A stretch of 61,336 bases of DNA, the filler included, from an uncultured Methanosarcinales archaeon (GTDB lineage Archaea; Nanobdellota; Nanobdellia; Woesearchaeales; CAIVOO01): the NCBI GenBank assembly GCA_964485195.1. It is 5 parts of 5 records of this genome, joined end to end, with 100 filler letters (N's around TTAATTAATTAA, not from the genome) between each part and the next. Parts side by side here need not be neighbours in the genome. Positions count along the whole stretch, not along the records: positions 45,556 to 61,336 come from CAZAIK010000012.1; 4 more parts are not named here. The stretch is one strand, 5' to 3'. Below the pieces are notes generated by a model, which had not been told where the DNA came from, did not search any database, and saw only the letters and a program-made list of their open reading frames with translations. The position numbers and the translations under genes are program-made. Shown one piece after another: positions 32,637 through 61,336 of the stretch. The first letter of the stretch is position 1. Every line of letters begins with the position of its first letter.

Positions 32637-32736
32637 NNNNNNNNNNNNNNNNNNNNNNNNNNNNNNNNNNNNNNNNNNNNTTAATTAATTAANNNNNNNN
32701 NNNNNNNNNNNNNNNNNNNNNNNNNNNNNNNNNNNN
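32637..32736. other. Artificial contig linker
   Basis: N run + TTAATTAATTAA + N run. Confidence 0.98.
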
Positions 32737-45455: not shown

Positions 45456-45555
45456 NNNNNNNNNNNNNNNNNNNNNNNNNNNNNNNNNNNNNNNNNNNNT
45501 TAATTAATTAANNNNNNNNNNNNNNNNNNNNNNNNNNNNNNNNNNNNNNNNNNNN
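45456..45555. other. Artificial contig linker
   Basis: N run + TTAATTAATTAA + N run. Confidence 0.98.
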
Positions 45556-45560
45556 TTCAG

Positions 45561-46769: not shown

Positions 46770-46779
46770 GGTAATATTT

Positions 46780-48297
46780 ATGGCCAGGCCAAAAAACAAA
46801 GTAATCCTTGTGATAAGGGACGGTTGGGGTTATAGGAAATCGCCAGTTAAAAACGCTGTCAGGGCGGCAAAGACACCTGAAACTGATGCGCTGATGAAAA
46901 AATATCCGAACACCCTGCTTAAGGCAGCGGGGGAAGCAGTGGGGCTTCCAAAAGGGTACCAAGGGAATTCTGAAGTGGGCCATATGGCTCTCGGAGCAGG
47001 AAGGATTATCAAGCAGTCACTGACAAGAATTAACAAGGCAATAAAAACAGGGAAATTCTTTGAAAAACCTGCCCTGCGCAAGGCAATAGACAACTGCAAG
47101 AAGAACAAGTCAGCCCTCCACATAATGGGGCTGCTGCAAACAGAAGGGGTTCACAGCCACATCAACCATTTGTTCGCACTGCTGGACCTTTGCAAAAGGA
47201 AAAAATTCACGAAAAATGTTTACATCCACGTTTTCACCGACGGCAGGGACGCTCCGGTCACGGAAAGCGTCAGGCATATCAGGGAATTGGAAAGCAAAAT
47301 CAGGAAAATGGGAGGCGGCCCGGTGATTGCGACAGTTTCAGGAAGATATTACGCAATGGACAGGGACAGGAGATGGAAAAGAACCAGGAAAGCATATGAC
47401 TGCATCGTTAATGCAAAAGCAGAGGAATCATTCAATGATCCCTTAAAGCAGGTTAGGGAATGCCATCAGGCAGGAGAGACCGACGAGTTCATAAAGCCCA
47501 GAAAAGCTGAATGGTATGAAGGAGTCAAGCCAAATGACTCAATGATCTTCTTTAATTTCAGGACAGACCGCACAAGGCAGCTGACCAAGGCCATCGTGGA
47601 AAAGGATTTCAAAGGATGGAAACGAAAGCCATTGGACGTGTATTTTGCAGCAATGACTGAATACTATGAAGGCATGAATGCAGAGATAGCTTTTGAGGAA
47701 ATTCCTCTCAAGAACCTTCTGGGGGGAATCATAAGCAGGGAAGGGTGGAAGCAGCTGAGGATATCTGAAACTGAAAAATATGCTCACGTTACCTTTTTTT
47801 TCAACGGGCAGGAGGATGAGCCCTACAGGAACGAGGACAGGATATTAATCCATTCCCCGAAAGTGGCCACCTATGACAAAAAGCCGGAGATGAGCGTGTT
47901 CAGGATAAAGGGCAGGGTTGTGGGAGAGATAAAAAAAGGAAAATATGATTTGATCATAACCAATCTTGTCAACGGGGACATGGTGGGGCACACAGGCAAC
48001 TGGAATGCAACAATAAAGGCATTGGAAGCAGTTGACAAGTGCCTTGGGGAGATTGTGAGAGCAGGAAGAGAGAATAATTATGATTTCGTGATTTGCGCAG
48101 ACCACGGAAACGCAGAGGACATGACAGAGAAATGGAGGACTTCCCACACCATAAACCCGGTTCCCTGCATAGTCATCTCAGACAAGGCAAAAGCCCTCAA
48201 GAGGAACAAGGGGCTCAAGGACGTGGCTCCCACAATACTTGACATTATGGGACTCAAAAAGCCGAAGGATATGACAGGGGAAACATTAATCAAGTAA
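46780..48297 (+). CDS. gpmI: 2,3-bisphosphoglycerate-independent phosphoglycerate mutase
   Basis: DGWG, GNSEVGH, TDGRD, GRYYAMDRD, ETEKYAHVTFF, DMVGHTG, ADHGNAE. Confidence 0.97.
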   Translation: MARPKNKVILVIRDGWGYRKSPVKNAVRAAKTPETDALMKKYPNTLLKAAGEAVGLPKGYQGNSEVGHMALGAGRIIKQSLTRINKAIKTGKFFEKPALRKAIDNCKKNKSALHIMGLLQTEGVHSHINHLFALLDLCKRKKFTKNVYIHVFTDGRDAPVTESVRHIRELESKIRKMGGGPVIATVSGRYYAMDRDRRWKRTRKAYDCIVNAKAEESFNDPLKQVRECHQAGETDEFIKPRKAEWYEGVKPNDSMIFFNFRTDRTRQLTKAIVEKDFKGWKRKPLDVYFAAMTEYYEGMNAEIAFEEIPLKNLLGGIISREGWKQLRISETEKYAHVTFFFNGQEDEPYRNEDRILIHSPKVATYDKKPEMSVFRIKGRVVGEIKKGKYDLIITNLVNGDMVGHTGNWNATIKALEAVDKCLGEIVRAGRENNYDFVICADHGNAEDMTEKWRTSHTINPVPCIVISDKAKALKRNKGLKDVAPTILDIMGLKKPKDMTGETLIK

Positions 48298-48298
48298 T

Positions 48299-48787
48299 TC
48301 AACCACCCATATAGCTTCTCACAAGAAGTCCCACCAGGTATGTGCTCACGATTACCACCACAGCAATCAAGAGATGCTCGCCAACAACCTTCCAAGATGA
48401 TTTTTCCTGAACCCTTGCCATTATGTAGCTGTAAACTGCGATGACAGCCAGGCCGAACGTCACGCTTATTATGATGGCAGTAGTTATGCTTAGGAAAATG
48501 AAAGGGAGAAGGAATATTATTGCAAAAGAGAACTTTGAAAAAAACGCATAAAGGGTGCTTTCCCACACTTTCGCGTCCCCCTCAGCCTCCTCACTGATGT
48601 GAATCCCGAAGCTGTCAGAAAGGGTGTCGGCAACAGCAACTGAAACAATCCCTGCAATGACCGCTATTCTGCTGTTCGTGGCTGTGTTTATTCCTATGAT
48701 CATTCCAAGTATGGTTATGATTCCCGAAGTAAGCCCGAAACTGAAACCCTTTGTTGCCGCCCTTCCCTTTAACACGCTTTTTTTCAT
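48299..48787 (-). CDS. VIT1/CCC1 family metal transporter-like protein
   Basis: FGL.SG..T.LG, A.AD..SD..G..ISEE.E; five TMs. Confidence 0.85.
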   Translation of the reverse strand: MKKSVLKGRAATKGFSFGLTSGIITILGMIIGINTATNSRIAVIAGIVSVAVADTLSDSFGIHISEEAEGDAKVWESTLYAFFSKFSFAIIFLLPFIFLSITTAIIISVTFGLAVIAVYSYIMARVQEKSSWKVVGEHLLIAVVVIVSTYLVGLLVRSYMGG

Positions 48788-48920
48788 TTTGGACAGTGTT
48801 ACATCAGCAGTATTTTAAATATTACCATTGCGCCCAGCGATATGGCAAGAAGATAAGTTTTCTATTTGAAAATAGTAACAATCAAAAAGTTTATATACTG
48901 CTTCCTAAACGCTACCAAGT

Positions 48921-50048
48921 ATGGAAAAAGAATATCATAGCATTGCAGTAATTCCCGGGGATTTGAATGGCGTAACTGTCACTGACGCTGCCCTGAAGCT
49001 AAGCGAGGCAGCAGGCCGCGCATTGGCACGGCCGATAAAACACACAAGATTTGACTATAACGCTGACTATTTTCTGAAGAATGATATCAAAGAGCTCAGG
49101 TTCAGGGAGCTTGAGGAGCTGAAAAAATATGACCAGATATTCCTCGGGGCTGTGGGCGACCCCACCAAGGCAAAGCCAGGAATACTTGAAGTCGGCATCC
49201 TGCTGAGATTAAGGCAGGCATTCGGCCAACACGTGAACTTAAGGCCCATAGTGCTGCCAGAAGGAGTCCCTTCACCGATCGTGGGGAAGGACCACAGGCA
49301 CATAAACTTTGAAATCTGCAGGGAAAACTCAGAAGGGCTTTACGTTGCAGAGGGAAGGGTTGAAAATGCAGGTTCTGCCAATGAAGTAGGCATACAGGAG
49401 ATGCACTGCAGCTATAAAGGAGTCAAAAGGCTGGCAGAATTCGGGGAGCAGAGGGCAAGAGAGAGAACAGAAAAAGGCAAAAAACCAGTTATGCATTTTG
49501 TTTTCAAGACAAACATCCTGACATTTGCTGCCAGGCCCTGGCAAAGGGTCTTTGAAGAATACCAGAAAAGGGAGGACATTGACGTGAAATACATGCACGT
49601 TGACAATTTCGCAATGCAGACGATAACAAAGCCGGAGCAGTTCAGCGTGGTGATAACAGAAAATATGTTTGGTGACATCCTTACTGACTTGGGCGCAGTG
49701 GTCCAGGGCGGAATAGGAAGCGCAGTTTCAGGAAACATAAACCCCGCAGGGGAATTTCCCTCAATGTTTGAGCCAATACACGGAACAGCCCCGGACAAGT
49801 GGTACGAGACAGATGAAAAAGGCAATTATGTTCCTGGAACATTCAGTCCTGAACTGGCCCAGGGAATGAGGCCGGAAGCGGCATTCTTGTCATATGCAAT
49901 GATGCTGGAGCAGATGAAGGAAAAAGACGCTGCCAAGCTTGTGAGGGAGGCTGCCCTGCAAAACCTGAGAGACCCCGGCTACAAAGACAAGAAACTCGAT
50001 GACCTGACAGACCAGGCCTGCAGGTTTGCGAAAGAACAGGAAAAATGA
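48921..50048 (+). CDS. Isocitrate/3-isopropylmalate dehydrogenase family enzyme (LeuB-like)
   Basis: IAVIPGD, GAVG.P, LR..F....NLRP, RENSEG.Y, K.N, N.FGDILTD, FEP.HG.APD. Confidence 0.9.
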   Translation: MEKEYHSIAVIPGDLNGVTVTDAALKLSEAAGRALARPIKHTRFDYNADYFLKNDIKELRFRELEELKKYDQIFLGAVGDPTKAKPGILEVGILLRLRQAFGQHVNLRPIVLPEGVPSPIVGKDHRHINFEICRENSEGLYVAEGRVENAGSANEVGIQEMHCSYKGVKRLAEFGEQRARERTEKGKKPVMHFVFKTNILTFAARPWQRVFEEYQKREDIDVKYMHVDNFAMQTITKPEQFSVVITENMFGDILTDLGAVVQGGIGSAVSGNINPAGEFPSMFEPIHGTAPDKWYETDEKGNYVPGTFSPELAQGMRPEAAFLSYAMMLEQMKEKDAAKLVREAALQNLRDPGYKDKKLDDLTDQACRFAKEQEK

Positions 50049-50392
50049 TAAGACAGTCTGAATATAATCCAGGATTGAGCCTGGAGGAAGCAGAGGAAAG
50101 ATATAATGAAGTGAAAGGCAAGTTTGAAAGAGTTAAAACCAATTATTCCGGAGCGCTCTGGAAATTCAGGATAGGAAGGTTCAGGAAAAACATTAAAGAG
50201 GAAGACAAGCAAACCTTAGCTGACTGCGTGGGTGTTCTACTGCCTTTAATGAGAGCGCCTTCTGTTCAGGAACAGGCAAGAAAATCAGAGAACTCTGAGG
50301 AAACGCTGCACTACCTGGCTTCGCAGCTTAACTGGCAGATACTTGATTACCTTGCAGATTTCAGGAATTCAGGCATTGAAAGAATAGAGTAA
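50045..50392 (+). CDS. Hypothetical protein
   Basis: ATGA overlap with the dehydrogenase gene. Confidence 0.55.
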   Translation: MIRQSEYNPGLSLEEAEERYNEVKGKFERVKTNYSGALWKFRIGRFRKNIKEEDKQTLADCVGVLLPLMRAPSVQEQARKSENSEETLHYLASQLNWQILDYLADFRNSGIERIE

Positions 50393-50889
50393 GATTGCAC
50401 AAACCTTCTGAAATCAACAGACCTTTCCCTTCTCAGGACTTCCCCTTCGGCAGAAAGCAGCGCTATTTCTATTGCTGACTCGTTATTCCTGAAAGGCCTG
50501 TCAAAATAAAACACCTTTTTTCCCTTCCTCATAGGATTGCACAATTCCTCAGCATACCTTGGGATCTTGGCAGAGATGTAGTCGCCTGCCTTGACAGCGG
50601 AAAAGCCGTCAAATGTTATGAGATTGACAGGAATTGCCTTGTTATCCGGCGAAACATTCAGGATGAGCCTTGAAGCATAACCCCCTTTGTATGACGGAGA
50701 ACGCCCTCCGATAACAGGGTTGGGAGTGAATGACGTTGGATATGTCTCTGCCACAACCTCATCAACAGTGAAATTTTCAGTGACCACAAGTTCAGAAGGT
50801 TTTTTTGAGCGGGATTCCAAATCCAAGATTTTCTTTAGTTTTTCCTTCTGTATCTCATCCATAACATTGTTCAGATTCCCCTGACCCAT
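50347..50889 (-). CDS. Hypothetical protein
   Basis: 180-aa ORF with upstream TTTTATA box. Confidence 0.65.
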   Translation of the reverse strand: MGQGNLNNVMDEIQKEKLKKILDLESRSKKPSELVVTENFTVDEVVAETYPTSFTPNPVIGGRSPSYKGGYASRLILNVSPDNKAIPVNLITFDGFSAVKAGDYISAKIPRYAEELCNPMRKGKKVFYFDRPFRNNESAIEIALLSAEGEVLRRERSVDFRRFVQSYSILSMPEFLKSAR

Positions 50890-51126
50890 ATGTTAAAAAG
50901 CGCATAAGAATATAAAAACCTTTCGGAACAAAGTTTTCAGAAGTATTTAAATAGCACATTATAGAGCAGGCCTGTACTTTCCTCTTTCAATCTGTTTCAT
51001 CTCTTTTATCACGTAACTAAGATGCACTTGTATAAAAGAATCATGCTCTAAAAAGGGTTAGGGGGCTTCCATAAGCCAAGAACAGCCCAAAACTGATTAT
51101 ATTCTCATAAGAATAAAAAATAAAGA

Positions 51127-52239
51127 TCAGATAAAACCAAAAATCATTCCTGCAATCGTAGAATATACTATAACCAGGCCAATGTATACAGCAGTCTTCT
51201 TATTGCCTAAGACACCTCTGACCACCAGCATATTGGGCAGGCTCAGGGAAGGCCCCGCCAATAAAAGCGCCAGAGCAGGCCCTTGGTGCATGCCTTTGGC
51301 AATCAAGGCCTGCAGGATGGGTATCTCTGTCAATGTTGAGAAATACATGAAAGCCCCGAATATTGATCCTATGAGATTTCCTATCAGGGTATTGCTTCCA
51401 ACCAGCTGGGTGATAAGGCTTTCCGGAAGCAGGGGCATGATGAATCCTGCAATGAAGACTCCAATAAACAATAATGGCAGTATGAGCTTTGAGAAGTTCC
51501 ATGTCTCATTAAGCCATTTATGCACAACATGATCCCTGAATTTCCACAATGCAAGGCCGACAACACTTAGAGTGAATGTTCCCATCAGGGAATATTTCAG
51601 GATATTGCTGATCTGCAATCCATTGACAACAAGTACCCCAATCATGAGCCCAAAAAAAGCGATCATAACCTTGTTGGACAGCCTTGATTCTTCTGTCTCA
51701 TGGATCATCAGTTTCTCCTTACCCACTTTCTCCCTGAAAATTGCGTGCATTGTGAGACCCACCAATATGGAAAGCAATATTGCTGAAGTGATTCTTGCCA
51801 GCCCAATCTTCAATCCCAAAACACTCATAGTCAGGAATATGGCAGCAATGTTGATTGCCGGGCCTGAGAAAAGGAATGTTACTGCCGGGCCCAGTCCTGC
51901 ACCTCTTTTCCTTATGCCTGCAAAAAGGGGCAGGATTGTGCATGAGCATACTGCAAGTATCGCTCCTGATACAGAAGCAACCCCATAAGAGACATATTTC
52001 TTAGCTTCATGGCCAAGATACTTCATGACTTTCTCTTTCTGGATAAATACGCCAACAGCACCTGCTATGAACAAGGCAGGAACAAGGCAGGTCAAGACGT
52101 GCTCTCTGGCGTAATCATGCAGCAGATCAAATGCAGAAAGTATTGAAGTCCTGAACCATTCTGCCTGCGAGGGCACGAAGTACAGTATCGCAAATATTAC
52201 TGCAATCCATATGAGCATGTTCCAGTCTTTTCTTTCCAT
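51127..52239 (-). CDS. arsP: ArsP/DUF318 family permease
   Basis: HVL.CLVPA.FIAGA, AVCSCT.LPLF, FL.SGPAIN, MYF.TLTE.PI, LLLAGP.LSLP. Confidence 0.9.
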   Translation of the reverse strand: MERKDWNMLIWIAVIFAILYFVPSQAEWFRTSILSAFDLLHDYAREHVLTCLVPALFIAGAVGVFIQKEKVMKYLGHEAKKYVSYGVASVSGAILAVCSCTILPLFAGIRKRGAGLGPAVTFLFSGPAINIAAIFLTMSVLGLKIGLARITSAILLSILVGLTMHAIFREKVGKEKLMIHETEESRLSNKVMIAFFGLMIGVLVVNGLQISNILKYSLMGTFTLSVVGLALWKFRDHVVHKWLNETWNFSKLILPLLFIGVFIAGFIMPLLPESLITQLVGSNTLIGNLIGSIFGAFMYFSTLTEIPILQALIAKGMHQGPALALLLAGPSLSLPNMLVVRGVLGNKKTAVYIGLVIVYSTIAGMIFGFI

Positions 52240-52240
52240 A

Positions 52241-52951
52241 TCACATCACCATTATTCCAATGTAATAGATTCCTGCAAGGATGAATATTCCTGCCACTAT
52301 TTTTCTCATCCATTTCTCAAAGGTTCCTATCTTGTTCATAATACTGCCAAGCTTAGCAACACTCTTGACTAGGATGAATGAGAAGATTATTACTGGCAAT
52401 CCTGTCGCAAATGCAAATACTGAAGGGATTATCAGCCCGTCTCCAGCTTTTAAAGCAATCGGGATGAGCATTCCAAAAAATAACACTGCACTAAACGGGC
52501 AGAATGCAAGAGCAAATATCACTCCCAAAAGAAAGCTTCCTAAAAATCCTTTGCCTGCAAGTTTTTCTTTGAGTTTGTTCAGCTTATTGCTTGGCTTAAA
52601 CATATTTATCTTGATGATATCAAGCATTATGATTCCAATAATCAAAAGCAATGGTCCGAGAAGGTTTTCTCCGTATTTCTGCAGGAATAGCGCTATTGCC
52701 TGGGTGTTCAGCCCAAACCAGACTATTGCTGAGGCTATCAATACATAAGTGAGCATTCTTCCAAGCGTGTAGAGAAATCCAACTATGATAGTGTGTTTGC
52801 TGTTATCTATTTTCTTGCTTGCATAAGCTATAGCGGTGATGTTTGTCGCCAAAGGGCACGGGCTTATCGCTGTCATCAGTCCTATGAAAAATGCAGCAAG
52901 TATTCCTATCTCACTTGTCCCCATTGCTTCCATGAATGCCATCAGTCCCAT
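52241..52951 (-). CDS. arsG: ArsG-like / DsbD-CcdA family membrane protein
   Basis: TAISPCPLATNI.A, YTLGR...Y, FALAFCP.S..LFFG.LIP. Confidence 0.85.
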   Translation of the reverse strand: MGLMAFMEAMGTSEIGILAAFFIGLMTAISPCPLATNITAIAYASKKIDNSKHTIIVGFLYTLGRMLTYVLIASAIVWFGLNTQAIALFLQKYGENLLGPLLLIIGIIMLDIIKINMFKPSNKLNKLKEKLAGKGFLGSFLLGVIFALAFCPFSAVLFFGMLIPIALKAGDGLIIPSVFAFATGLPVIIFSFILVKSVAKLGSIMNKIGTFEKWMRKIVAGIFILAGIYYIGIMVM

Positions 52952-52953
52952 TT

Positions 52954-53430
52954 TTAATTGCCTGCAAGTTTCTGCTCAATGACCCCTTTAAGATAATTCA
53001 TGTAATCCTGCTTATTCCTTAACTTATACCATACTTGGATATTTTGCTCCGGAGTAAAATCACCTCCTCTGTATGTTCCAAGCCAGAGTGATGATCCTGT
53101 AGCGCCATATTTCATGACCAAATCCCTGTTTTCTGGAAGTTCGCCATTGATGTGGTCAAAGATTATTATTCCTTTCTCAAGTTCTTCTTTGAAGTAAGTG
53201 TTCACTGTCTCTTCAGCATAATCACCCATGGTTACGCAGGAATAACATTGATTATTTCCATGAAAATGATATATCTCAAGCTTGTCGATGTTTACTGCCC
53301 TTTCTGCTGATGACATATCATTCACAGCATTGCCTGCCGAGTTATTCTCATTTTCACTGCCTGAACAGCCTGCAACCAATACTGCAAAGATCACCACTGC
53401 GATTATCACTGCATAGTCTCTCCATTTCAT
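52954..53430 (-). CDS. arsF: ArsF-like thioredoxin-fold lipoprotein
   Basis: Lipobox LVAGC; YHFHG..QC.SC, F..EL..G, N......Y....SSL. Confidence 0.8.
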   Translation of the reverse strand: MKWRDYAVIIAVVIFAVLVAGCSGSENENNSAGNAVNDMSSAERAVNIDKLEIYHFHGNNQCYSCVTMGDYAEETVNTYFKEELEKGIIIFDHINGELPENRDLVMKYGATGSSLWLGTYRGGDFTPEQNIQVWYKLRNKQDYMNYLKGVIEQKLAGN

Positions 53431-53434
53431 CTTA

Positions 53435-53662
53435 TTACAACCATCCTTTTATTTCTTCAACATCAGCCACTTTGCCGTAGCTCTTGACTTCACCGTCAAT
53501 GACTATGGCTGGAGTTGACATCACACCATATTCAACAATCTTGCTCACATCAGTGACTTTTACAATATCTGCCTTCTTCTTTGCCTCTTCAACAGCCTTC
53601 CTCGCATTATCTTCAAGCTGCTTGCATTTCGGGCAGCCTGTTCCAAGTATCTCTATTTTCAT
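53435..53662 (-). CDS. Small redox-active disulfide protein (MTH895/TM0996-like thioredoxin)
   Basis: Restarted at 53662: MKIEILGTGCPKC, YGVMSTPA.VIDG. Confidence 0.92.
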   Translation of the reverse strand: MKIEILGTGCPKCKQLEDNARKAVEEAKKKADIVKVTDVSKIVEYGVMSTPAIVIDGEVKSYGKVADVEEIKGWL

Positions 53663-53862
53663 TGTCTTAAACCTCCAAACTTGATTATCCTTACTAATGC
53701 AAATACAATAAATGCCATCCCGAACCAAACATGCAAATCAATTATTAATCCTGAGCCTGCTGAACTGCCTGTTAGATATTTAATAAATAAGGGAATAGAT
53801 GTTACTGTAACCAAAATAAAGCTGATTATGCACAACATTTCGAATAGTTTATCTTTATTCAT
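53659..53862 (-). CDS. Small two-TM protein with LHVWFG motif
   Basis: ATGA overlaps on both sides. Confidence 0.7.
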   Translation of the reverse strand: MNKDKLFEMLCIISFILVTVTSIPLFIKYLTGSSAGSGLIIDLHVWFGMAFIVFALVRIIKFGGLRQ

Positions 53863-54179
53863 TCTTTAACTCCTTTTGCCCTGTCTTGGATTCCAAGAAC
53901 AACTAAATCTTCTTCCGCCTTTATCCCCCTTATCTCATCTTTTTTGATGTAAATCCCCTGATTCTTAATCAGAGTATGTTCTCCATCAATATCTGTGAAT
54001 ATGCCCTTTCCTTCAATCACAGTCAGCAATACGCCATAATCCTCTGGATGAGGGGGGATCTCAACTCCTTTCTTCAGGCATATCAGCGCCGCGTGAAATC
54101 CTCTAGTGTTCAGGAAATGCCTTTTGATTGGCTTTTCGTCTGAAAAGATTACTTTTTCATTCAAGTCGTATGTTTTCAT
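53859..54179 (-). CDS. Cupin domain protein
   Basis: L..G.EIPPH, V.EG.G, R.I.A.EDL. Confidence 0.8.
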   Translation of the reverse strand: MKTYDLNEKVIFSDEKPIKRHFLNTRGFHAALICLKKGVEIPPHPEDYGVLLTVIEGKGIFTDIDGEHTLIKNQGIYIKKDEIRGIKAEEDLVVLGIQDRAKGVKE

Positions 54180-54203
54180 GCCTGGTCCCCGTATTGTAAC
54201 ATA

Positions 54204-54545
54204 TTATCCTGTGCAGCTGCAGGGCTTTGGATTGAGCTTCTCCTCAAGCTCTTTCTTTGCCACTTTCAGAAGCCCATTCTCTTTTATCAAATCCTTGACA
54301 TGCTGCCTGTCAGGGAAGCTTATTGCATCAAAAATGCACCATGTCTCGCATGAGGTGCAGCCCACCATGCAGTTATTAGGCCTTGCAACAACTGATTTGT
54401 TCTTTTCTCTGTCAAAATCAAACACATTCCTGCCGCAGCTTGTGACGCACATGCCGCATCCAGTGCATTTTGCTCCATCAATTGTCGGATGCCAGTCTAT
54501 CTTTGCCCGGTCAACACCTTTCCACTTTGAGAATTTTTCATCCAT
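54204..54545 (-). CDS. 2[4Fe-4S] ferredoxin (ArsE-like)
   Basis: W.G..R..I.W.P.ID..KCTGCGMCV.SC, NC.VGC.SC...C..DAI.FP. Confidence 0.9.
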   Translation of the reverse strand: MDEKFSKWKGVDRAKIDWHPTIDGAKCTGCGMCVTSCGRNVFDFDREKNKSVVARPNNCMVGCTSCETWCIFDAISFPDRQHVKDLIKENGLLKVAKKELEEKLNPKPCSCTG

Positions 54546-54547
54546 AC

Positions 54548-54802
54548 TTACACTTCCAATAACCTGAACAACTTTTTGACCCTTGGATCTTTGATTGAAT
54601 ACATTATTTTTTTCCCGTCTCTTCTTGTCCTGACTATGCCCTCTTCTCTGAGTTTTTTCAGGTGCATTGAAGTATTTGATTGTGTCCTCCCTATATGCGA
54701 GGGGATTTCACAAGCGCATTTCTCTCCAGTAAGCAAAAAACGGATTATATTGTATTTTGTCTCTTCACCCAACGCCTTAAGGAGTCTGAAAGTATTAATC
54801 AT
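54548..54802 (-). CDS. arsR: ArsR/SmtB family repressor
   Basis: KAL...T...I, EKCACEI, QS..S.HL..L...G.V..RR.G....YS. Confidence 0.93.
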   Translation of the reverse strand: MINTFRLLKALGEETKYNIIRFLLTGEKCACEIPSHIGRTQSNTSMHLKKLREEGIVRTRRDGKKIMYSIKDPRVKKLFRLLEV

Positions 54803-54821
54803 ATCAACCTGGATTGATATG
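54800..54821. promoter_or_regulatory. ArsR operator
   Basis: CATATCAA-N6-TTGATATG inverted repeat between the TATA box (54822-54832) and the start codon, overlapping the ATG. Confidence 0.8.
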
Positions 54822-54841
54822 TTATATATAAATGTTTCGGT

Positions 54842-55459
54842 CTACTCTGCATGTAAGTTTTCAATATGCCTTCTAGAATTAGAGTAAATCACAGGAATCC
54901 TGAACTTTTCTATCTTGTTTCCTGCATTGTCAACAGGGATGACCAGCCCAAGGCTGTCTGCATAATCATTCCAATCAATCAATACAATATCATCCATTCC
55001 TTCTCTAATAGCTGACTCTGTTGATTCATGAAATATAAGCTTCTCTGTGTTAGGAAGGTATTCACTGGCAAGCTTTTCATCTGCTGCTGTGTGGATTCTG
55101 CTGTCTTTCAGTTGGGAGATATGCATCAATCGCTTTTCTCTGCCTACCAGAGTCAAGCCCTGCCTTAGCTGTTTTTCAAAAGGGTTATTCACTTCATTTC
55201 CATTGGCAAGCCTTCCCACAAGCACCAAATCAACATCGCCGTCATTAAGGGCCTGAAGCGCCTCTGCTGTATAGTCAAATGGCTGCAATGAAACATAGCT
55301 GTTCTTTGACGCAATATCCTTTGCCAGATCAGACATTGTGGGGCAGTAGCCAAGGATTGCCTGCTCTTTTACAACAGCCATCCCTGCAGCATCACATCCT
55401 GCCAGCAGCATCAATGCCATGATCGCAGGAATACCCAACAGGAGGATTGTCTTTCTCAT
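54842..55459 (-). CDS. Lipoprotein, possible type 2 substrate-binding fold
   Basis: Lipobox LLAGC; GYCPTM, EAL.AL..G.VD..LVGR. Confidence 0.65.
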   Translation of the reverse strand: MRKTILLLGIPAIMALMLLAGCDAAGMAVVKEQAILGYCPTMSDLAKDIASKNSYVSLQPFDYTAEALQALNDGDVDLVLVGRLANGNEVNNPFEKQLRQGLTLVGREKRLMHISQLKDSRIHTAADEKLASEYLPNTEKLIFHESTESAIREGMDDIVLIDWNDYADSLGLVIPVDNAGNKIEKFRIPVIYSNSRRHIENLHAE

Positions 55460-55728
55460 TTTTGGATCTTCCTTAATGCTTCAGTCAAATCCGATGCATC
55501 AAAACCTATAAGTTGAACATTGTTTTCCTCAATGAACCTGTTCACTGTATCATTTACATCATCTATGCTTTTTCCTGCAAGCAATCCTTCTATCTGGGTG
55601 ATTGCTGTTTCTGGGTGTATAAAAAAATCACCTGAAATTTTTATGGATCTTATGGTGTCTTTCTCCATATCGACTTCCAGCCTTAGCAGTTTTCCGTTAG
55701 GAACCTTGTAATCAATATCATGCTTCAT
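55456..55728 (-). CDS. Lipoate-protein ligase accessory subunit (LplB, stand-alone C-terminal domain)
   Basis: K...GKL, I..I.ISGDFF.HPE..I..IE..L.G; ATGA overlap. Confidence 0.88.
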   Translation of the reverse strand: MKHDIDYKVPNGKLLRLEVDMEKDTIRSIKISGDFFIHPETAITQIEGLLAGKSIDDVNDTVNRFIEENNVQLIGFDASDLTEALRKIQK

Positions 55729-56480
55729 CTTAATCCCCGCCAGCTCGCTGTTGAATATTTTTCCCTGCATAATTCTTGGGCTAATGCAAGCTCCTCTTCG
55801 GTTAATCCGGATTCTTCAAACCTGACTTCAAAAACCTCTTCAAAACCCTTTATCAAACAATCTCTTAATTCTTCAATAGATATCTCTTTTTTCAGCTCTT
55901 TATTCAGAGAGGTTACCCTCTCTTCAACAGCTTTAATCATCTTGTCTTTTATCTTCTCATCCGGCACTTTTAGAAGAGAAAACATCTTCTTGATATCCAC
56001 CTCAATAAGAATTGTTCCGTGCTGCAAGACAAAACCTTTTTTTCTTGTCTGGGCATTTCCTGAGATCTTTTTTCCATTGACAATTATATCATTTACCTGC
56101 TTAAACTCCGGGTTGATATGCAACAGCTCCAGGCCTTTTATTGCAGCAGAGCATATCTTCTGGTATGATGCAATGATATCCTGCGGGACATCTTTCTCAG
56201 AGATTGCTAAGGAATAGGTCAATTCATTATCATGAAAAACCGCCCCTCCGCCAGTATATCTCCGCACAATATCCACTCCCTGTTTTTCTGCATTATCAGC
56301 ATCAACCTCTTTTTTAAGTGACTGGAAATAGCCCATTGTCATGCATGGAGGATTCCATGTAAAGAATCTTAGTGTATTTGGAACTTTGTTCTTGATTCTA
56401 AAAGCCAGTATGGCTTCATCTATTGCCATCTGCATAGCGCCATTTGTCTCTATTGTCTTAATAAGCCTCCATGTTTCCAT
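55725..56480 (-). CDS. lplA: Lipoate-protein ligase catalytic subunit
   Basis: MAIDEA, G.FQ, VRR.TGGGAVFHD, NDI.V.GKKISG.AQ, LQHGT. Confidence 0.93.
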   Translation of the reverse strand: METWRLIKTIETNGAMQMAIDEAILAFRIKNKVPNTLRFFTWNPPCMTMGYFQSLKKEVDADNAEKQGVDIVRRYTGGGAVFHDNELTYSLAISEKDVPQDIIASYQKICSAAIKGLELLHINPEFKQVNDIIVNGKKISGNAQTRKKGFVLQHGTILIEVDIKKMFSLLKVPDEKIKDKMIKAVEERVTSLNKELKKEISIEELRDCLIKGFEEVFEVRFEESGLTEEELALAQELCREKYSTASWRGLR

Positions 56481-56481
56481 C

Positions 56482-56919
56482 TTAACTACCGACCAAGTCT
56501 ATTGTAGTGCCGGAAGATGCCAGTACCTCTTCTCCTGCAATTAGCTCAATATTAACAGAGTAAGGCCCTGGGTAAACTCCTCCGCACCCTGAAGTACAAT
56601 GAGGTGTTTTTACAACAAACGTAATTTCATTCTTGCCGCTATTGATATCAATAACTTTTGATTTATCAATATAAGCATAATTATATGGCTTAATCCCTGT
56701 TAATCTTGCAGTTATATCCTGCATTTGTATATGGCTTTTTACAACCGCGGTTATTTTTATCTCCTCATAAGACCCATAAGTCTTTTTGTCTGTCTCAAAG
56801 CTTAATATATTGACATCAGCAATATTCTGTTGTTGCATGCACCCTACAAGTATAAATGAAGTAAATACAAAAACCAGCATTTGCGTAATTTTTATCTTAT
56901 TTTTTATTATCACATCCAT
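56482..56919 (-). CDS. Ig-like lipoprotein with CxxxC motif
   Basis: Lipobox LVGC; TDK..Y, P.CTSGCGG..PG.Y. Confidence 0.7.
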   Translation of the reverse strand: MDVIIKNKIKITQMLVFVFTSFILVGCMQQQNIADVNILSFETDKKTYGSYEEIKITAVVKSHIQMQDITARLTGIKPYNYAYIDKSKVIDINSGKNEITFVVKTPHCTSGCGGVYPGPYSVNIELIAGEEVLASSGTTIDLVGS

Positions 56920-57773
56920 CCCTCATCTGATATAAAACTGCTTGCCCTATATGAACTTCTCACTAAAGGCCCTGCAACAACCTGCTTTATTCCCAATTCT
57001 TTGGCCTTTTCTTCAATTTCCTTGAACTCCTCAACAGTATACTGCTTCTTCATTCTAAAATGTTTTCTGCTAGGCTGCAAATATTGCCCGATTGTCACAA
57101 TGTCGCAGCCAGCATCCTTTAGATCAGTTATAGTCTGGAGAATTTGGCTCATCTCTTCTCCAAAGCCCAGCATAAAGCCTGATTTGATTTTTATCTCTGG
57201 ATTGAAATTTTTTGCAGTTTTTAGCAATTTTAGGGAAAAATCATAGCTGCCGTTTGGCCTTAATAAAGGGAATAGGTCTCTCACAACCTCAATATTATGA
57301 TTTAGCACGTCTGGCTTGGAATCAATTATTTTTTTTAGCGCTTCCCAATTGCCTTTCAAGTCCGATATCAAAAGCTCCACCCTGCATTTTGGAGTGGCCT
57401 GTCTGATCTCATCAACCGTTTTTACAAATTGTTCAGCGCCACCATCTTCTAAATCATCTCTTGTGACACAGGTTACGACAGCATAACTCAGACCAAGTTT
57501 TTTAACGGCTTCCGCTATCCGTTTTGGTTCATCATCATCAACATCTTTAGGCACTCTTTTATTTATGTTGCAATAAAGACAGTTCCTTGTGCATGTATTC
57601 CCCAGTATCATAAACGTAGCAGTCCCTTTTGAAAAGCATTCATATCTATTAGGGCAATTTGCTTCCATACATACCGTAGTAAGATTATTGTCCTCGGTCA
57701 GCTTCTTTGTCTTCAAGTATTCATTCTTATTGTAAGGTTCTATTTCAACCCAGGATGGGACGCCTGTTATCAT
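56910..57773 (-). CDS. lipA: Lipoyl synthase
   Basis: TVC.EA.CPN..EC, CTRNC.YC, RDDL.DGGA, NHN.E, GQYLQP, GPLVRSSY.A. Confidence 0.97.
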   Translation of the reverse strand: MITGVPSWVEIEPYNKNEYLKTKKLTEDNNLTTVCMEANCPNRYECFSKGTATFMILGNTCTRNCLYCNINKRVPKDVDDDEPKRIAEAVKKLGLSYAVVTCVTRDDLEDGGAEQFVKTVDEIRQATPKCRVELLISDLKGNWEALKKIIDSKPDVLNHNIEVVRDLFPLLRPNGSYDFSLKLLKTAKNFNPEIKIKSGFMLGFGEEMSQILQTITDLKDAGCDIVTIGQYLQPSRKHFRMKKQYTVEEFKEIEEKAKELGIKQVVAGPLVRSSYRASSFISDEGWM

Positions 57774-58048
57774 GAAAATACCTTATTTGCTTCTATCAAG
57801 GCAACAAATCCTTCATAGTCAACTAGTTTCACATTTGCATTATTTTTTATACCCCTTAGTTCCAAATCCTCTTTTAGGGCAATAATCTCAGCATTTTTTT
57901 CTTTAAACTCTTCAATAGCTTTTGATGTTTTATTGTTCAGCATAAGGACCCCATCTTGTATGAGGAGCACTTTATCATCTTGCTTGACATATTTCATTAC
58001 ATTTGTATTTTTGTTTGATAATGATTCTTTTATTATGAATAGCACCAT
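57770..58048 (-). CDS. dsrH: DsrH/TusB sulfur relay subunit
   Basis: D.VLLIQDGV, L.EDL..RG, DY.GFV.L. Confidence 0.9.
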   Translation of the reverse strand: MVLFIIKESLSNKNTNVMKYVKQDDKVLLIQDGVLMLNNKTSKAIEEFKEKNAEIIALKEDLELRGIKNNANVKLVDYEGFVALIEANKVFS

Positions 58049-58057
58049 TTTTTCACC

Positions 58058-58408
58058 TCAAAAATTGATTATTGTCTCGGCCTCATCGATAAAGTCGCGC
58101 AATTCTTTGTTTGTTATATGGTCTGCTTTAATGCAGTCAGATTCTGCAAGATTTCGCTCTGTCATTGATTCTTCACTGGCAAATATCTTTAGGCCAAATT
58201 CTTCTGCGTTATCAAACCCTTCTTTTAGTCCTGTCATCCCTCCTAATTCTGGTTTTTGGTCTTTTGCCAGGCAAAACACGCCATCATTTGCAAAGACCAG
58301 CTTTGTCTCTAAATCCATCCCTGCGAAAGCAATGCCTGCCCTCAATGCTTCTGCTGCAAAAACGCTTCCAAAAGGCGCGTTATTGACGATTAGCAATACT
58401 TTATTCAT
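58058..58408 (-). CDS. dsrF: DsrF/TusC sulfur relay subunit
   Basis: APFGS....EALR, F..DGV..L.K.Q.P, ES..ER.L. Confidence 0.88.
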   Translation of the reverse strand: MNKVLLIVNNAPFGSVFAAEALRAGIAFAGMDLETKLVFANDGVFCLAKDQKPELGGMTGLKEGFDNAEEFGLKIFASEESMTERNLAESDCIKADHITNKELRDFIDEAETIINF

Positions 58409-58417
58409 TTTTTCACC

Positions 58418-58762
58418 TCATATGCTTACGAATCTGTCGCATTCCTTGATTAAGTCTGCAAGACCCGGAAGGCCTTCAAGCTCTCCTTTTTCTACAAGCT
58501 GATCTCTTTTTATACCCCTATATTGGACGCAGACTCCGCAGATCTTTACTTCAACCCCTATTCTTGTCAATTCATCTAGCTTTCTGGCAAGGTTTCTCTC
58601 GCTTCCAGAATTAATCCCTTTATTTGCTGCTATTACGCTGTCTACATAAAGAAAGATTTTTACCTCATGTTTTTTGCTTATTGCAGCTTTTGCCAGATGG
58701 TATGCTGTGTCTACATCCTGATATGTATAGGGCGGCCTTACTAACATCAATCCAAGTTTCAT
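58418..58762 (-). CDS. dsrE: DsrE/TusD sulfur relay subunit
   Basis: PY....DTA..LA.AA, IFLY.D.V, CGVC...RG, GL..LA......DR.V. Confidence 0.9.
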   Translation of the reverse strand: MKLGLMLVRPPYTYQDVDTAYHLAKAAISKKHEVKIFLYVDSVIAANKGINSGSERNLARKLDELTRIGVEVKICGVCVQYRGIKRDQLVEKGELEGLPGLADLIKECDRFVSI

Positions 58763-59775
58763 TCTTTTTCACCTCTCATAAACATAAAATATGCAGCAGT
58801 CCATGCTCCTAATATTATGAACGTTCCTGCTATGATGCTACTTACAGCTAACTGCGGAACGCCGCTTAAGATATGGCCAATGTTGCATCCGCCAGCAATT
58901 ATCGCGCCTAATCCGAGAAGTATCCCCCCGATAAATGCCTGAACTCCCATTTTTATTGGAGGCATCCTTATTTTGAATTCATTAGCAATTAAAGCAGCAA
59001 TAAACGCCCCGATAATCAACCCAATAACCTCGAAAGATTCCCAGGTTAGGAAGTTCTGGCCAGTAATTATAGACTTCACGATTGTCTCAAAACCCATTGT
59101 GATCCCTAAAGGATAATTTCTTCCTGAAAGAGGGGAAAATATAAATGCCAAAATCCCTATAATCCCTATTGTCATTCCTGTGGCTTTCCAGTTCCAGCCT
59201 GATTTGAATATCCTGCCAAATATAGATTTTTCAGTCTCTGATGATGAAGCTTCCTTTTGCCTAAATAAAAAGTATATTCCAATAATTGAAAGGACTATGA
59301 CAAATAACCATGCAGGAATTCCTGTGACTGAAGATAATGTTATTTTTCCTAAATCCTGCTGCTGTATTGTTTTGGTGATGCCTGACAAAAATCCGTCTTT
59401 TGCAAAATAAGCTGTAGATGCAAATGCCAGCAGCGCAAGCATTGAACTGACCATCCCTTCACCAACTCTATAAGCTGTCCCGCTTGCACATCCTCCTGCA
59501 ATCACCATTCCAATGCCAAAAATAAATCCTCCTGTAATTACACCCAAGATAAAAAACGATTTTGGAGCAAGAGTGATTATTCCAAAATAGGAAAGCAGAC
59601 CAAATCCTATCATCTCAATAATGAGAGCCAGACCAACTGCTTTCAGCAAAGTAAAATCTTTGAATACCAATGGATCACGGAATGCTGAATTCATGCAGAA
59701 CCTGCCTTTTTGCAAAACAAAACCAAACAACAATCCAATGACTAATCCAGATAATATCCCAAAAAATTCCATCAT
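58759..59775 (-). CDS. yeeE: YeeE/YedE (TsuA-like) thiosulfate/sulfur transporter
   Basis: FG..LQ+GRFC, GG..FG.GM..AGGCASG, GG.L.G.GA..AGGCNIGH. Confidence 0.93.
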   Translation of the reverse strand: MMEFFGILSGLVIGLLFGFVLQKGRFCMNSAFRDPLVFKDFTLLKAVGLALIIEMIGFGLLSYFGIITLAPKSFFILGVITGGFIFGIGMVIAGGCASGTAYRVGEGMVSSMLALLAFASTAYFAKDGFLSGITKTIQQQDLGKITLSSVTGIPAWLFVIVLSIIGIYFLFRQKEASSSETEKSIFGRIFKSGWNWKATGMTIGIIGILAFIFSPLSGRNYPLGITMGFETIVKSIITGQNFLTWESFEVIGLIIGAFIAALIANEFKIRMPPIKMGVQAFIGGILLGLGAIIAGGCNIGHILSGVPQLAVSSIIAGTFIILGAWTAAYFMFMRGEKE

Positions 59776-60012
59776 CTACTTCACCTTTATCAGCATTCTA
59801 TGTTCAGGGCCTTTTATTTTTTCAACACTTATAACCTTATGCCCCTCTTTCTCTGCATTTCGTGGAATCCTCTCCAAGGACAGAGGATAATCTGTCAAGA
59901 CTTCAAGGATATCACCAGATTTCATCTCCTTTAATTTTTTTCTTGTCTTTATGTCAGGATAAGGGCAGATTTCTCCCCTCACATCAATTGTAGCATTAGG
60001 CTTTTCAGCCAT
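59776..60012 (-). CDS. tusA: TusA/YeeD family sulfurtransferase
   Basis: D.RG..CPYP, L..M..G..LEV..D.P.S...IP. Confidence 0.92.
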
Positions 60013-60023
60013 TTTGCATCACC

Positions 60024-60464
60024 TCAGTTTAATTTGTCTCCCGGGTTTATGCAGTTGTTTTCGAGACAGTATTTTATCTTGCTTTCCATCTCATCTCCCA
60101 TGTAATCCGCGTAGCCGACCCAGTACTCTTCACCTATAAATGTTGTTGGAACTCCTTGTGCTGATGTGCCGTAAGCTTTTGCAACTTCCTGGAAAAGCCT
60201 GGCGTTCTCTGGATTCTTCCAGGTCTCAAACATCTTTATCTCAATTTCAGGATACTTCTCCTGCATCTCTTCAAGGAAAGGCTTCTCCTCAGCGCAATGA
60301 GGGCAGCCATCTCCCCAGAAAAAATAAACTGTCACTTTGCCAGGATCATCATTGAGGTTTGCAACAACACTGCCTGTTGGTATTGTTTGCGTATTTGAAG
60401 AGCATCCTGTTAACGCTATGCTTCCTAATATTACCAATATCAAATACAATTGTTTGTGTTTCAT
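60024..60464 (-). CDS. Glutaredoxin/thioredoxin-fold lipoprotein
   Basis: Lipobox LTGC; FWG.GCPHC, GVP..FIG. Confidence 0.88.
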   Translation of the reverse strand: MKHKQLYLILVILGSIALTGCSSNTQTIPTGSVVANLNDDPGKVTVYFFWGDGCPHCAEEKPFLEEMQEKYPEIEIKMFETWKNPENARLFQEVAKAYGTSAQGVPTTFIGEEYWVGYADYMGDEMESKIKYCLENNCINPGDKLN

Positions 60465-60847
60465 TTTATCTTTTCTCCGTATGTTTTTTCAGCTTCTTTT
60501 GGATCTAACAGGTTATCAACTCCTTCTTTGTCCTCTATCTTAATTTTCATAATCCAGTTTTTGTAAGGCTCCTTATTTATCTTTGATGGCTCGTCAAAAA
60601 GTGAATCATTCACTTCTATAATTTCTCCGCTGACCGGGCTTGATAGGTGTCCTGACCACTTGACTGCCTCTAGAGATACATAAGTTTCTCCCTGTTTTAT
60701 CTTTTTCCCTTTTTCAGGAAGCTTGATGAACACAAATTCCTTCACTTTTTTTGCAGCAGGCTCAATAATTCCCACCGTAGCTATATTAGCTTCAATTTTT
60801 ACCCAAGAGTAGTCTTTATTGTACCTTAAATCATTTGGAAATTTCAT
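60461..60847 (-). CDS. Glycine cleavage H-like lipoyl carrier protein
   Basis: P..L.Y....WV, VGI, E.VK (lipoyl-Lys), SPVSG...EVN..L...P..IN..PY..W; GGAGG SD. Confidence 0.92.
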   Translation of the reverse strand: MKFPNDLRYNKDYSWVKIEANIATVGIIEPAAKKVKEFVFIKLPEKGKKIKQGETYVSLEAVKWSGHLSSPVSGEIIEVNDSLFDEPSKINKEPYKNWIMKIKIEDKEGVDNLLDPKEAEKTYGEKIK

Positions 60848-61336
60848 TTTCAACCTCCTTTTCATCATCTTCAGATTTTTCTTTTGTCATATCCTCATTT
60901 TTATCAGCTTCATCTGGTTTTTTGTTTTTCTTGATCCTCTTTGTAATGTAGACAATAATTCCCGCTGTTGTCAGGGCTGTAGCAACCAGTCCTAAAGAAA
61001 CCAATGCATTGTTCATCAGGGCAGGCTTAATTATCAAGACCATGCCTAAACACAGCATCATCACCCCTGAGATCAGCTTTAAGACCTGTCCCTGCCATTC
61101 TGTCATTTTTTTAGCTCCTAAAGTGATTACAAACATCAAGACAATGAACAGTAGGGGGATAATATAAACCAAGTTATAAAACCCAAGGTATATATAGTAT
61201 TGTGCAGTTGATAAATTGTGAAGAGTCAACACTCTTGTAAATACCATCGGGAATCCTGCAGTGCACAATAGCTCATAACTATTTGCAGCAATGGCAAGGA
61301 TAATCGTGCCTATCATCATTGATGGAAGAGAGGAGG
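60831..61336 (-). CDS. DsbD/CcdA-like membrane redox protein, C-terminal part (extends beyond window)
   Basis: N.YELLCTAGFP..F, Y...YN..Y..PL, LKL.SG..M. Confidence 0.75.
   Translation of the reverse strand, partial: SSLPSMMIGTIILAIAANSYELLCTAGFPMVFTRVLTLHNLSTAQYYIYLGFYNLVYIIPLLFIVLMFVITLGAKKMTEWQGQVLKLISGVMMLCLGMVLIIKPALMNNALVSLGLVATALTTAGIIVYITKRIKKNKKPDEADKNEDMTKEKSEDDEKEVENEISK

Follow-up and report, generated by a model that had tools for sequence, protein, structure and literature searches.

The window analysed here is a stretch of 61,336 bases made of pieces of five contigs (C2, C4, C5, C6 and C12) from an uncultured archaeon of a DPANN order, and its last part, 54842-61336, holds an operon in which a GcvH-family lipoyl carrier, genes for lipoate attachment and synthesis and a putative sulfur-relay cassette are encoded together. 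The N runs at 23504-23603, 28765-28864, 32637-32736 and 45456-45555 are contig joins, across which gene order is unreal. The operon lies on contig C12 (15,781 bp), which is present entire as window 45556-61336 and ends at 61336 inside the operon's first gene. The assembly of the genome under study, referred to as G000, comprises 1,126,147 bp in 32 contigs and is rated 99.47% complete. Other G-numbers designate genomes of the same GTDB order, and L-numbers the loci taken for comparison.

Thirteen open reading frames (ORFs), all on the minus strand, follow each other with intergenic gaps of -46 to +11 bp in the order membrane protein (cut), GcvH, thioredoxin (Trx)-fold lipoprotein, TusA, YeeE, DsrE, DsrF, DsrH, LipA, Cys-lipoprotein, LplA, LplB and PBP2-fold lipoprotein. 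This tightly packed run was announced in the same order by the original prediction, and ORFs, gaps and matches to Pfam and NCBIfam confirm it. For instance, gcvH shows start/stop coupling with the membrane-protein gene and with the Trx lipoprotein gene, dsrH and lipA overlap by 4 bp, 11 bp separate the Trx lipoprotein gene from tusA, tusA is followed by yeeE at 0 bp, and 39 bp lie between the PBP2-fold lipoprotein gene and the following arsR. Repeated GAGGTGA Shine-Dalgarno sequences had also been claimed for the run as a whole. They do precede tusA, dsrE, dsrF and dsrH (58053-60025), which makes 4 of the 12 sites of the window, and no core gene has one; 6.4 sites would be expected by chance, and 12 were reached in 1 of 100 shuffles. 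Their presence before cassette genes and not before core genes fits a separate origin of the cassette. A scan for bacterial promoters and terminators gave counts at chance level, its consensus being bacterial and not applicable to archaea.

The first gene (60831..61336) is an ORF open at the contig end that codes for the C-terminal 167 aa of a membrane protein fused to Trx domains, full-length relatives of which measure 578 and 592 aa in G134 and G356. Two cysteine motifs of the membrane domain, D-x-x-N-P-C and C-T-A-G-x-P, are invariant in 22 of 22 relatives, and CxxC Trx domains stand N-terminal to the membrane domain in all 17 proteins examined. G000 also has a paralogue of this protein at C1:113527-114638, which is split into ORFs of 185 and 144 aa whose frames differ and whose first-Cys motif is disrupted; a frameshift, loss of function as a pseudogene or a misassembly may account for this.

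The second gene (60461..60868) encodes an orphan GcvH-family lipoyl carrier of 135 aa that matches PF01597 at 119.8 bits, with a predicted lipoyl-Lys70 in the motif EAVKWSG. It scores above the cut-off of the subfamily model NF002270 (130.3 against 117) and below that of the equivalog model TIGR00527 (105.7 against 115.85), and its closest solved structures are canonical GcvH proteins. The lipoyl-Lys is invariant in 23 of 23 relatives and its context reads (L/V)E(A/G/S)(V/I/L/M)KW(S/T)G in 22 of them, G007 having instead the canonical ESVKSVSD. This protein holds the sole lipoyl domain detected in the G000 genome. It is followed by an exported lipoprotein with a Trx/glutaredoxin fold (60024..60464; PF00462, 24.8 bits for a cut-off of 22.9), which has its lipobox cysteine at position 21 and a CPHC motif at 54-57.

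Five genes then form the cassette. The TusA/YeeD-type sulfur carrier (59776..60012) matches PF01206 at 83.6 bits and contains a single cysteine, Cys16, in a CPYP motif; its top NCBIfam model, YedF, stays below cut-off (75.6 for 79). The neighbouring YeeE/TsuA-family transporter of sulfur compounds (58759..59775) matches PF04143 at 295.8 bits and carries Cys27, Cys96 and Cys297. For the pair, too, the curated cut-offs are not reached, be it for TsuA (NF052577, 315 for 400) or for TsuB (NF041048, 32.9 for 147.5). The last three genes encode paralogous subunits of the E/D, F/C and H/B types that share this one operon. The DsrE/TusD-like subunit (58418..58762) matches PF02635 at 79.8 bits, with TIGR03012 at 56.9 below its cut-off of 89.25, the DsrF/TusC-like subunit (58058..58408) matches PF02635 at 61 bits, with TIGR03010 at 62.5 below 94.15, and the DsrH/TusB-like subunit (57770..58048), which is devoid of cysteine, matches PF04077 at 70.2 bits and exceeds the cut-off of TIGR03011 (71.2 for 49.2). 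DsrE displays a C75-x-x-C78 pair. In the alignment, A. vinosum DsrE (2hy5_A) and E. coli TusD (2d1p_A) have their only active-site cysteine, part of a C-V-A-A motif, at the position of Cys75. Cys78 is additional, and the CxxC pair is common to E. coli YchN (1jx7). Both cysteines are present in 42 of 42 yeeE-linked homologues.

The lipoylation genes follow. LipA (56910..57773) is a canonical lipoyl synthase that exceeds the cut-offs of NF004019 (380.7 for 203) and TIGR00510 (330 for 310.25). It possesses CX4CX5C at 35-46, CX3CX2C at 61-68 and RSSY at 272-275, that is the auxiliary-cluster motif, the radical-SAM motif and the C-terminal motif that together define LipA. The LipS2 model NF053743 gives 28.6 for a cut-off of 270, so the synthase is not of the LipS1/LipS2 type. 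Eleven of 41 genomes, G000 among them, have a LipA match, but none of the 6 genomes of the same family, and the gene is seen in two contexts: LipA proteins of about 40% identity are encoded beside E1/E2 genes (G014, G031 and G032), and those of 51-72% identity beside gcvH and lplA/lplB without E2. In G007, gcvH-lipA-lplB-lplA is followed by a true Lpd (TIGR01350, 454.8 for 408.8). The ligase is bipartite, with a catalytic subunit, LplA, for lipoate or octanoate attachment (55725..56480; PF21948, 189.8 bits) and an accessory subunit, LplB (55456..55770; NF053749, 76.3 for 65); the model NF053750 stays below cut-off (215.4 for 480).

Two more lipoproteins complete the operon, and lipobox cysteines are present in all three of its lipoproteins. 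The Cys-lipoprotein (56482..56919) displays C108-x3-C112, is without Pfam or NCBIfam family match and has homologues in G134, G036 and L029. The PBP2-fold lipoprotein (54842..55459), with an invariant C39-P-T-M, is likewise without family match and is named after its predicted fold. With its model (pLDDT, the predicted local distance difference test score, of 85), Foldseek finds PBP2 binding proteins and the effector domains of LysR proteins, at E about 1e-8. The stretch was also sought in two DNA runs of one microbial mat metagenome study, where 93% and 81% of sampled words were present; the contigs of these runs are short and none spans it. No RNA run was listed as containing the sequence. 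A contig from the second of these metagenomes, run X2, joins lipA to lplA without the 489 bp in which the Cys-lipoprotein gene lies (window 56454-56944) and with 40 other letters in between, so that a co-occurring variant lacks this gene, like G356 and G025.

No other use for lipoate was found in the G000 genome. The E2 catalytic domain (PF00198) has no match in G000, nor in G134, G356, G025, G036 and G007. In the G000 genome, GcvT (PF01571) is unmatched and GcvP (PF02347) has only a sub-threshold match of 14 bits. DsrC and TusE are the known acceptors of DsrEFH and TusBCD; their family (PF04358) is without match in the G000 genome, and so is the HdrB-type CCG domain (PF02754). The absences that the original prediction noted in the visible part therefore extend to the whole genome for GcvP, GcvT, E2, DsrC/TusE and HdrB, and fail for the L protein, since an Lpd-like flavoprotein is encoded on contig C5, far from gcvH (C5:35719-37134, L004:433-1848). 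This flavoprotein disulfide reductase of 471 aa has a CxxxxC pair and reaches 590.4 bits with the dihydrolipoyl dehydrogenase model NF004947, whose cut-off is 592. An Lpd-like match was found in G000 and G025 and not in G134, G356 and G001, so that Lpd was rejected as a tracker of the operon-bearing island across these five genomes. The genome also encodes a PP-loop protein weakly resembling MnmA.

These results bear on the idea that the operon is a cut-down sHdr-LbpA system, or that its carrier is a true glycine-cleavage H-protein whose partners lie off the contig. TusA, a DsrE-family protein, a lipoate-binding H-like protein and its own ligase do make up the sHdr-LbpA accessory set (PMC11094781). 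Nevertheless, a 99.5%-complete genome is without CCG/HdrB, GcvP or GcvT match and the synthase is LipA, not LipS1/S2. Moreover, the DNA beyond the equivalent of position 61336, where the original prediction would have had such genes overturn it, shows no sHdr/CCG or glycine-cleavage gene in G134 or G356. In both genomes the membrane protein continues there. Beyond it, G356 has a membrane winged-helix (HTH) gene, ABC transporter genes and the genes of archaeal L1, P0 and P1, and G134 has the 3' end of a membrane-protein ORF, seen as an ORF without family scan. This explanation is thus largely refuted and has hardly any probability left.

Orphan GcvH proteins recur across the order. Among 401 sampled genomes, GcvH was matched in 97, E2 in 75 and GcvT in 39, and 63 genomes had GcvH without E2 and GcvT. 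Of these 63, ten rest on weak matches and four are interrupted by stops; 51 remain without those, and four genomes flagged as unpublished stand outside the 63. GcvH and E2 occurred together in only 11 of the 401 genomes, two of these GcvH matches being weak (E >= 1e-7). The two are near-exclusive in this order, and lineages seem to retain either the one lipoate user or the other.

Twenty orphan-gcvH loci were then compared, which were chosen by the author and not at random, for strong matches mostly off contig ends, several being cut by contig ends all the same. In 17 of the 20 loci, gcvH adjoins the gene of a Trx-fused membrane protein of 427-604 aa with one or two exported CxxC Trx domains, the gaps between the two genes being -35 to +59 bp. 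A flavoprotein resembling coenzyme A disulfide reductase (CoADR), its best match although below cut-off, is encoded in 14 loci, a membrane-anchored winged-helix protein in 13, LplA in 11 and LipA in 7; tusA, yeeE and dsrE are found in none of the 20. The conserved core of the common operon is the Trx-fused two-Cys membrane protein, GcvH and the CoADR-like flavoprotein, with LplAB and sometimes LipA. A profile of the membrane domain matched 210 of 301 genomes at E <= 1e-10, and GcvH was present in 47 of the 49 genomes with matches of at least 290 bits, a count that is partly circular as the profile was built from gcvH neighbours and that takes in genomes flagged as unpublished. No published description of an operon combining lipoyl-GcvH and membrane thiols was found in the literature on lipoate in DPANN or Woesearchaeota, on YeeE with GcvH, on the LipA cluster with TusA and on GcvH with DsbD/CcdA. 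This thiol-redox system is widespread and apparently undescribed.

Compared with this common form, the G000 operon carries an insertion. The cassette fills the slot between the Trx lipoprotein gene and lipA, a slot that is occupied by the CoADR-like flavoprotein in G036, L029, L129, L143 and L144, by the relay in G000, G134 and G356, and that is empty in G025. When YeeE was sought in the 401 genomes, six matches came out, three of them full-length (G000, G134 with 93% identity and G356 with 81%) and three weak and fragmentary. Although placed in other GTDB families, G134 and G356 have their genes arranged as in G000 between the Trx lipoprotein gene and lplA/lplB, at 53-95% protein identity, so the gene set recurs in other genomes as the original prediction required. 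What had been proposed as a self-contained module is nonetheless a variant of a commoner operon, rare in the order with 3 of 401 genomes, and has tusA-yeeE-dsrEFH as an inserted cassette in the flavoprotein's place.

Outside the order, the nearest metagenomic YeeE homologues share at most 56% identity over full length. Of 80 metagenomic yeeE loci, 71 have tusA ahead of yeeE and 39 have a dsrE-like gene after it; 5 contain a GcvH-like gene, 1 contains lplA and 0 contain lipA, these counts covering the fetched stretches, many of which are short (22 of 80 are 10 kb or longer). It is possible, though rather doubtful, that the cassette is an autonomous system of thiosulfate or sulfane uptake for general sulfur supply, inserted where the lipoyl-GcvH operon tolerates it and co-transcribed with the operon without any direct hand-over to GcvH or LipA. 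Besides the many loci where it stands alone, the distinct GAGGTGA sites and the separate origin that they suggest, the rarity of the combination in the order and the G025 core with its empty slot all favour such simple co-location. On the contrary, the tight embedding at both edges, in the dsrH/lipA overlap and the 11 bp before tusA, and the conservation of the arrangement in G134 and G356 argue against it. So does the fact that contigs of unrelated anaerobes also have the cassette near GcvH-like genes and, since DsrC/TusE acceptors were not found in G000, an acceptor is to be sought nearby.

These five contigs (L047, L120, L082, L105 and L092), from unidentified anaerobes, show GcvH-like genes near tusA-yeeE-dsrEFH, some with N-terminal extensions of 70-100 aa, and a PhoU/AbrB-type regulator nearby. 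Hdr-, MvhD- or GltD-type redox genes (HdrA/B/C-, MvhD- or GltD-like) accompany the GcvH-like gene in 4 of the 5, all but L092, and L047 also encodes LplA. They may represent a separate lipoyl-linked sulfur redox system.

Another possible acceptor is LipA itself. The relay would then bring thiosulfate sulfur so that the auxiliary [4Fe-4S] cluster, lost by LipA at each turnover, can be restored, which is close to the original proposal that imported sulfur feeds lipoate synthesis. The translational coupling of dsrH to lipA speaks for it, as does the presence of lipA in 3 of 3 relay loci compared with 7 of 20 loci of the flavoprotein type; the flavoprotein gene upstream of lipA is coupled to it as well, overlapping it by 4-22 bp in G036, L029 and G026, so that the slot may serve LipA. 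Nevertheless, lipA accompanies none of the 80 metagenomic yeeE loci, where GcvH-like genes reach 5, which leaves the proposal without outside support, and two cysteine desulfurase-like genes are available in G000 for Fe-S assembly. A single lipoyl carrier needs little sulfur, and a dedicated importer with a five-protein relay is hard to square with that need. Furthermore, the flavoprotein is found with gcvH in 14 of 20 loci, 9 of these 14 being without lipA in the stretch, which indicates that it tracks GcvH and not LipA. A supply of sulfur to LipA is on balance improbable.

Our tentative reading, to which we give a little less than an even chance, is that the locus is a rare variant of an operon conserved in ultra-small archaea, in which the orphan lipoyl-GcvH serves as a cytoplasmic dithiol/disulfide carrier met by the sulfur relay, and takes part neither in glycine cleavage nor in a 2-oxoacid dehydrogenase. 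LplAB would load octanoate or lipoate onto GcvH and LipA would insert the sulfurs. Once reduced, lipoyl-GcvH could trade thiol/disulfide equivalents with the membrane protein and thereby with the Trx domains at the cell surface, and the Lpd-like enzyme of contig C5 might recharge it from NAD(P)H. On the sulfur side, YeeE would import thiosulfate or a related sulfane compound, and Cys16 of TusA would take the sulfane sulfur and pass it to Cys75 of DsrE. Cys78 would then resolve the persulfide to sulfide and leave a disulfide on DsrE, which dihydrolipoyl-GcvH would re-reduce in a chemistry of the thiosulfate:dithiol sulfurtransferase type. The link between relay and carrier is proposed because of the CxxC pair, of the lack of a DsrC/TusE acceptor and because unrelated contigs repeatedly have the cassette next to GcvH-like genes, never next to lipA. 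The suggestion that the lipoylated H-protein is itself the sulfane sulfur or redox carrier, which figured in the original prediction as an alternative, is thus the one that fits better than LipA supply, and it is still unproven.

Several points weigh against this reading. We infer from gene order and motifs both the role of GcvH as a dithiol carrier to the membrane protein, recharged by a flavoprotein, and its link with the relay, and the same holds for every transfer step. The cassette is mostly free-standing, with 75 of the 80 metagenomic loci devoid of a GcvH-like gene in the fetched stretch. The three relay-bearing loci are close kin, which implies one acquisition and not three independent associations. 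In addition, G000 contains a TrxR-like gene besides its two cysteine desulfurase-like genes, so that neither a lipoyl reductant nor an extra source of sulfur is needed on genomic grounds. Finally, no Lpd-like match was obtained in G134 and G356, both of which are 92% complete and fragmented.

The nature of the membrane protein calls for the same caution. It had been designated as DsbD-like, a label that its two-Cys/Trx architecture justifies and that homology searches do not: the DsbD models of Pfam and NCBIfam do not match the first ORF, 5 of 5 membrane domains are without Pfam match, and hhalign of the membrane domain against an ArsG/DsbD_2 alignment gives a probability of 0.2%, so that kinship with DsbD/CcdA is not demonstrable. 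For a model of the domain with a pLDDT of 79.5, Foldseek returned nothing at E <= 0.001. With VIA, CcdA (5vkv) came out at Z 7.2 and a root-mean-square deviation of 4.3 over 190 of 224 residues, which placed it 22nd in a list where many helical chains had Z 7-8.5. Neither fold search thus yielded a clear relative. The Atlas lead for the domain was SfLAP/DsbD_TM, at 0.91. The DsbD-like label therefore denotes architecture alone, homology to DsbD/CcdA being unproven. A complex prediction of GcvH with the membrane domain (alignments A5 and A4) scored 0.01 for a mark of 0.32, a result that was obtained without controls and counts neither way.

An unlikely version of the dithiol-carrier reading goes further in that protein-bound lipoate would replace or supplement thioredoxin as the cytoplasmic currency of a trans-membrane thiol relay, and that the sulfur relay, having taken the place of the flavoprotein by which the carrier would normally be charged from NAD(P)H, would charge or discharge lipoyl-GcvH directly. 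In one direction, the dihydrolipoyl arm would reduce a persulfide derived from thiosulfate to sulfide. In the other, sulfide present in a sulfidic mat would reduce the lipoyl disulfide, and DsrE, TusA and YeeE would carry off the sulfane sulfur; this would explain both the position of the relay in the flavoprotein's slot and the lack of an Lpd-like gene in G134 and G356.

Whether C12 is instead a misbinned fragment of non-DPANN origin was also considered. In its composition the island half of the contig is an outlying case, since among 10-kb pieces of the large contigs only 3.4% are farther from the genome mean. The same-genus genome G001 is without the island, and one related record bears the submitter's label 'Methanosarcinales', though it falls in the same GTDB order. 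Set against this, G001 gives the best DNA match (76%) for the left end of C12, which carries a GH57-like gene and is the only part of the contig to match there, and in G356 the island shares one contig with archaeal L1, P0 and P1. Operons of this type are found inside the closed 910-kb genome G091 and the 277-kb contig G196:C1, and the membrane-protein paralogue of G000 lies on a 205-kb contig, C1. Misbinning is accordingly very improbable, and the DPANN origin, whose failure the original prediction had named among its refutations, is backed, with homologues of the PBP2-fold lipoprotein also in records labelled 'Nanobdellota archaeon' and 'Candidatus Nanoarchaeia archaeon'. Identity between G000 and G356 is 53-90% for the island proteins and 47-66% for L1, P0 and P1. 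Because island identity exceeds that of ribosomal proteins, G001 is without the island and the island half of C12 is marginal in composition, the sequence comparisons point to lateral spread of the island within the order and not to a misbinned foreign contig. The location of the island in G091 and G196 fits this, as does G003, of the same family, which has the flavoprotein form.

A search for overlaps between the ends of C12 and the other 31 contigs found none. Contig C16 was considered as the missing neighbour of C12, since its pair of ArsR and membrane-HTH genes resembles one found upstream of the operon in relatives, and ruled out, as it is without any piece of the membrane protein. The pair lies at C16:6759-7540, where the ArsR-like gene comes first; the winged-helix protein that follows is anchored in the membrane, has a Cys-x-Cys motif and is 64% identical to the product of the G025 gene that precedes the operon, and a membrane-thiol gene does not follow it on C16.

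Downstream of the operon, an ars-like thiol module (51127..54802, minus strand) encodes, according to Pfam and NCBIfam, ArsR (CAC), an HgcB-like ferredoxin, a cupin, DUF4405, Thioredoxin_3, an ArsF-like lipoprotein, ArsG (DsbD_2) and an ArsP_1 permease. Ars-like neighbours are likewise found in G025, G036, L029, G356 and L129. The cytoplasmic Thioredoxin_3, ArsG/DsbD_2 and the ArsF-like CxxC lipoprotein could form a trans-membrane thiol set of the module's own. In G036 (L021:12539-12886), a YlbF/YmcA-family protein (PF06133) that ends in GGCCG is encoded between the binding-fold lipoprotein gene and arsR.

Lipoate is bound in textbooks to glycine cleavage and 2-oxoacid dehydrogenases, with sHdr-LbpA as the first exception. 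About one genome in six of this DPANN order (63 of 401 sampled) has a lipoyl carrier and maturation genes with neither classical use matched, and the carrier gene almost always stands beside that of a two-Cys membrane protein with outward-facing Trx domains. If the carrier does move reducing power or sulfane sulfur, this would be a new role for lipoate and would fill a gap in how ultra-small, host-dependent archaea manage redox equivalents and sulfur. With the relay-bearing variant, nature itself provides an experiment on the carrier's reaction partner, and in vitro tests are feasible since, apart from one membrane protein, only small soluble proteins are involved.

Several known systems can be compared with this operon. 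In sHdr-LbpA sulfur oxidation, TusA, DsrE3 and rhodanese sulfur transferases go together with a lipoate-binding protein (PMC6067878; PMC11094781). Both systems have a GcvH-like lipoate-binding protein with its own ligase and lipoyl synthase genes, TusA and DsrE-family carriers alongside, and lipoate use outside glycine cleavage and 2-oxoacid dehydrogenases. Unlike that system, the present genome has no sHdr (CCG) match, LipA stands in for LipS1/S2, the relay consists of DsrE, DsrF and DsrH with a CxxC DsrE and not of DsrE3, and the operon is tied to genes for exported Trx lipoproteins and for a membrane protein with fused Trx domains. As for attachment, bipartite LplAB ligases are reported from 'Nano- and Haloarchaeota' (PMC10332631).

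ScsB (PMC3322552) represents a type of reductant relay. Such relays run from thioredoxin through DsbD/CcdA/ScsB to an exported Trx-fold protein. The likeness consists of two essential-looking membrane cysteines beside prolines, in helices 1 and 4, and of exported CxxC Trx domains, both fused and stand-alone. The difference is that the adjacent cytoplasmic partner is here a lipoyl carrier and not thioredoxin, and that no DsbD Pfam match is obtained, homology being unproven.

In the case of the cassette, tusA-like and yeeE genes adjoin as they do in YeeE/YeeD (TsuA/TsuB), YeeE having three conserved cysteines and TusA only one, and the substrate is here putative. YeeE/YeeD is a system of thiosulfate uptake; the present proteins differ in scoring below the equivalog cut-offs, in being followed by a DsrEFH-type trio and in being embedded in a lipoylation operon. 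YchN (1jx7) has its CxxC at the DsrE active-site position too; it is annotated as hypothetical, whereas the present DsrE has DsrF- and DsrH-like partners and a transporter.

The last parallel concerns lipoyl carriers outside metabolism of the classical kind. The Lpd-DlaT-AhpD-AhpC chain of Mycobacterium tuberculosis is a peroxidase relay. GcvH-L of Staphylococcus aureus is a second lipoyl carrier for comparison (PMC12440151). In these cases as in the reading favoured here, protein-bound lipoyl would be a general dithiol reductant or antioxidant carrier that a flavoprotein disulfide reductase recharges. In place of AhpC/AhpD or of macrodomain and sirtuin partners, however, the present operon has a membrane thiol protein and a sulfur relay.

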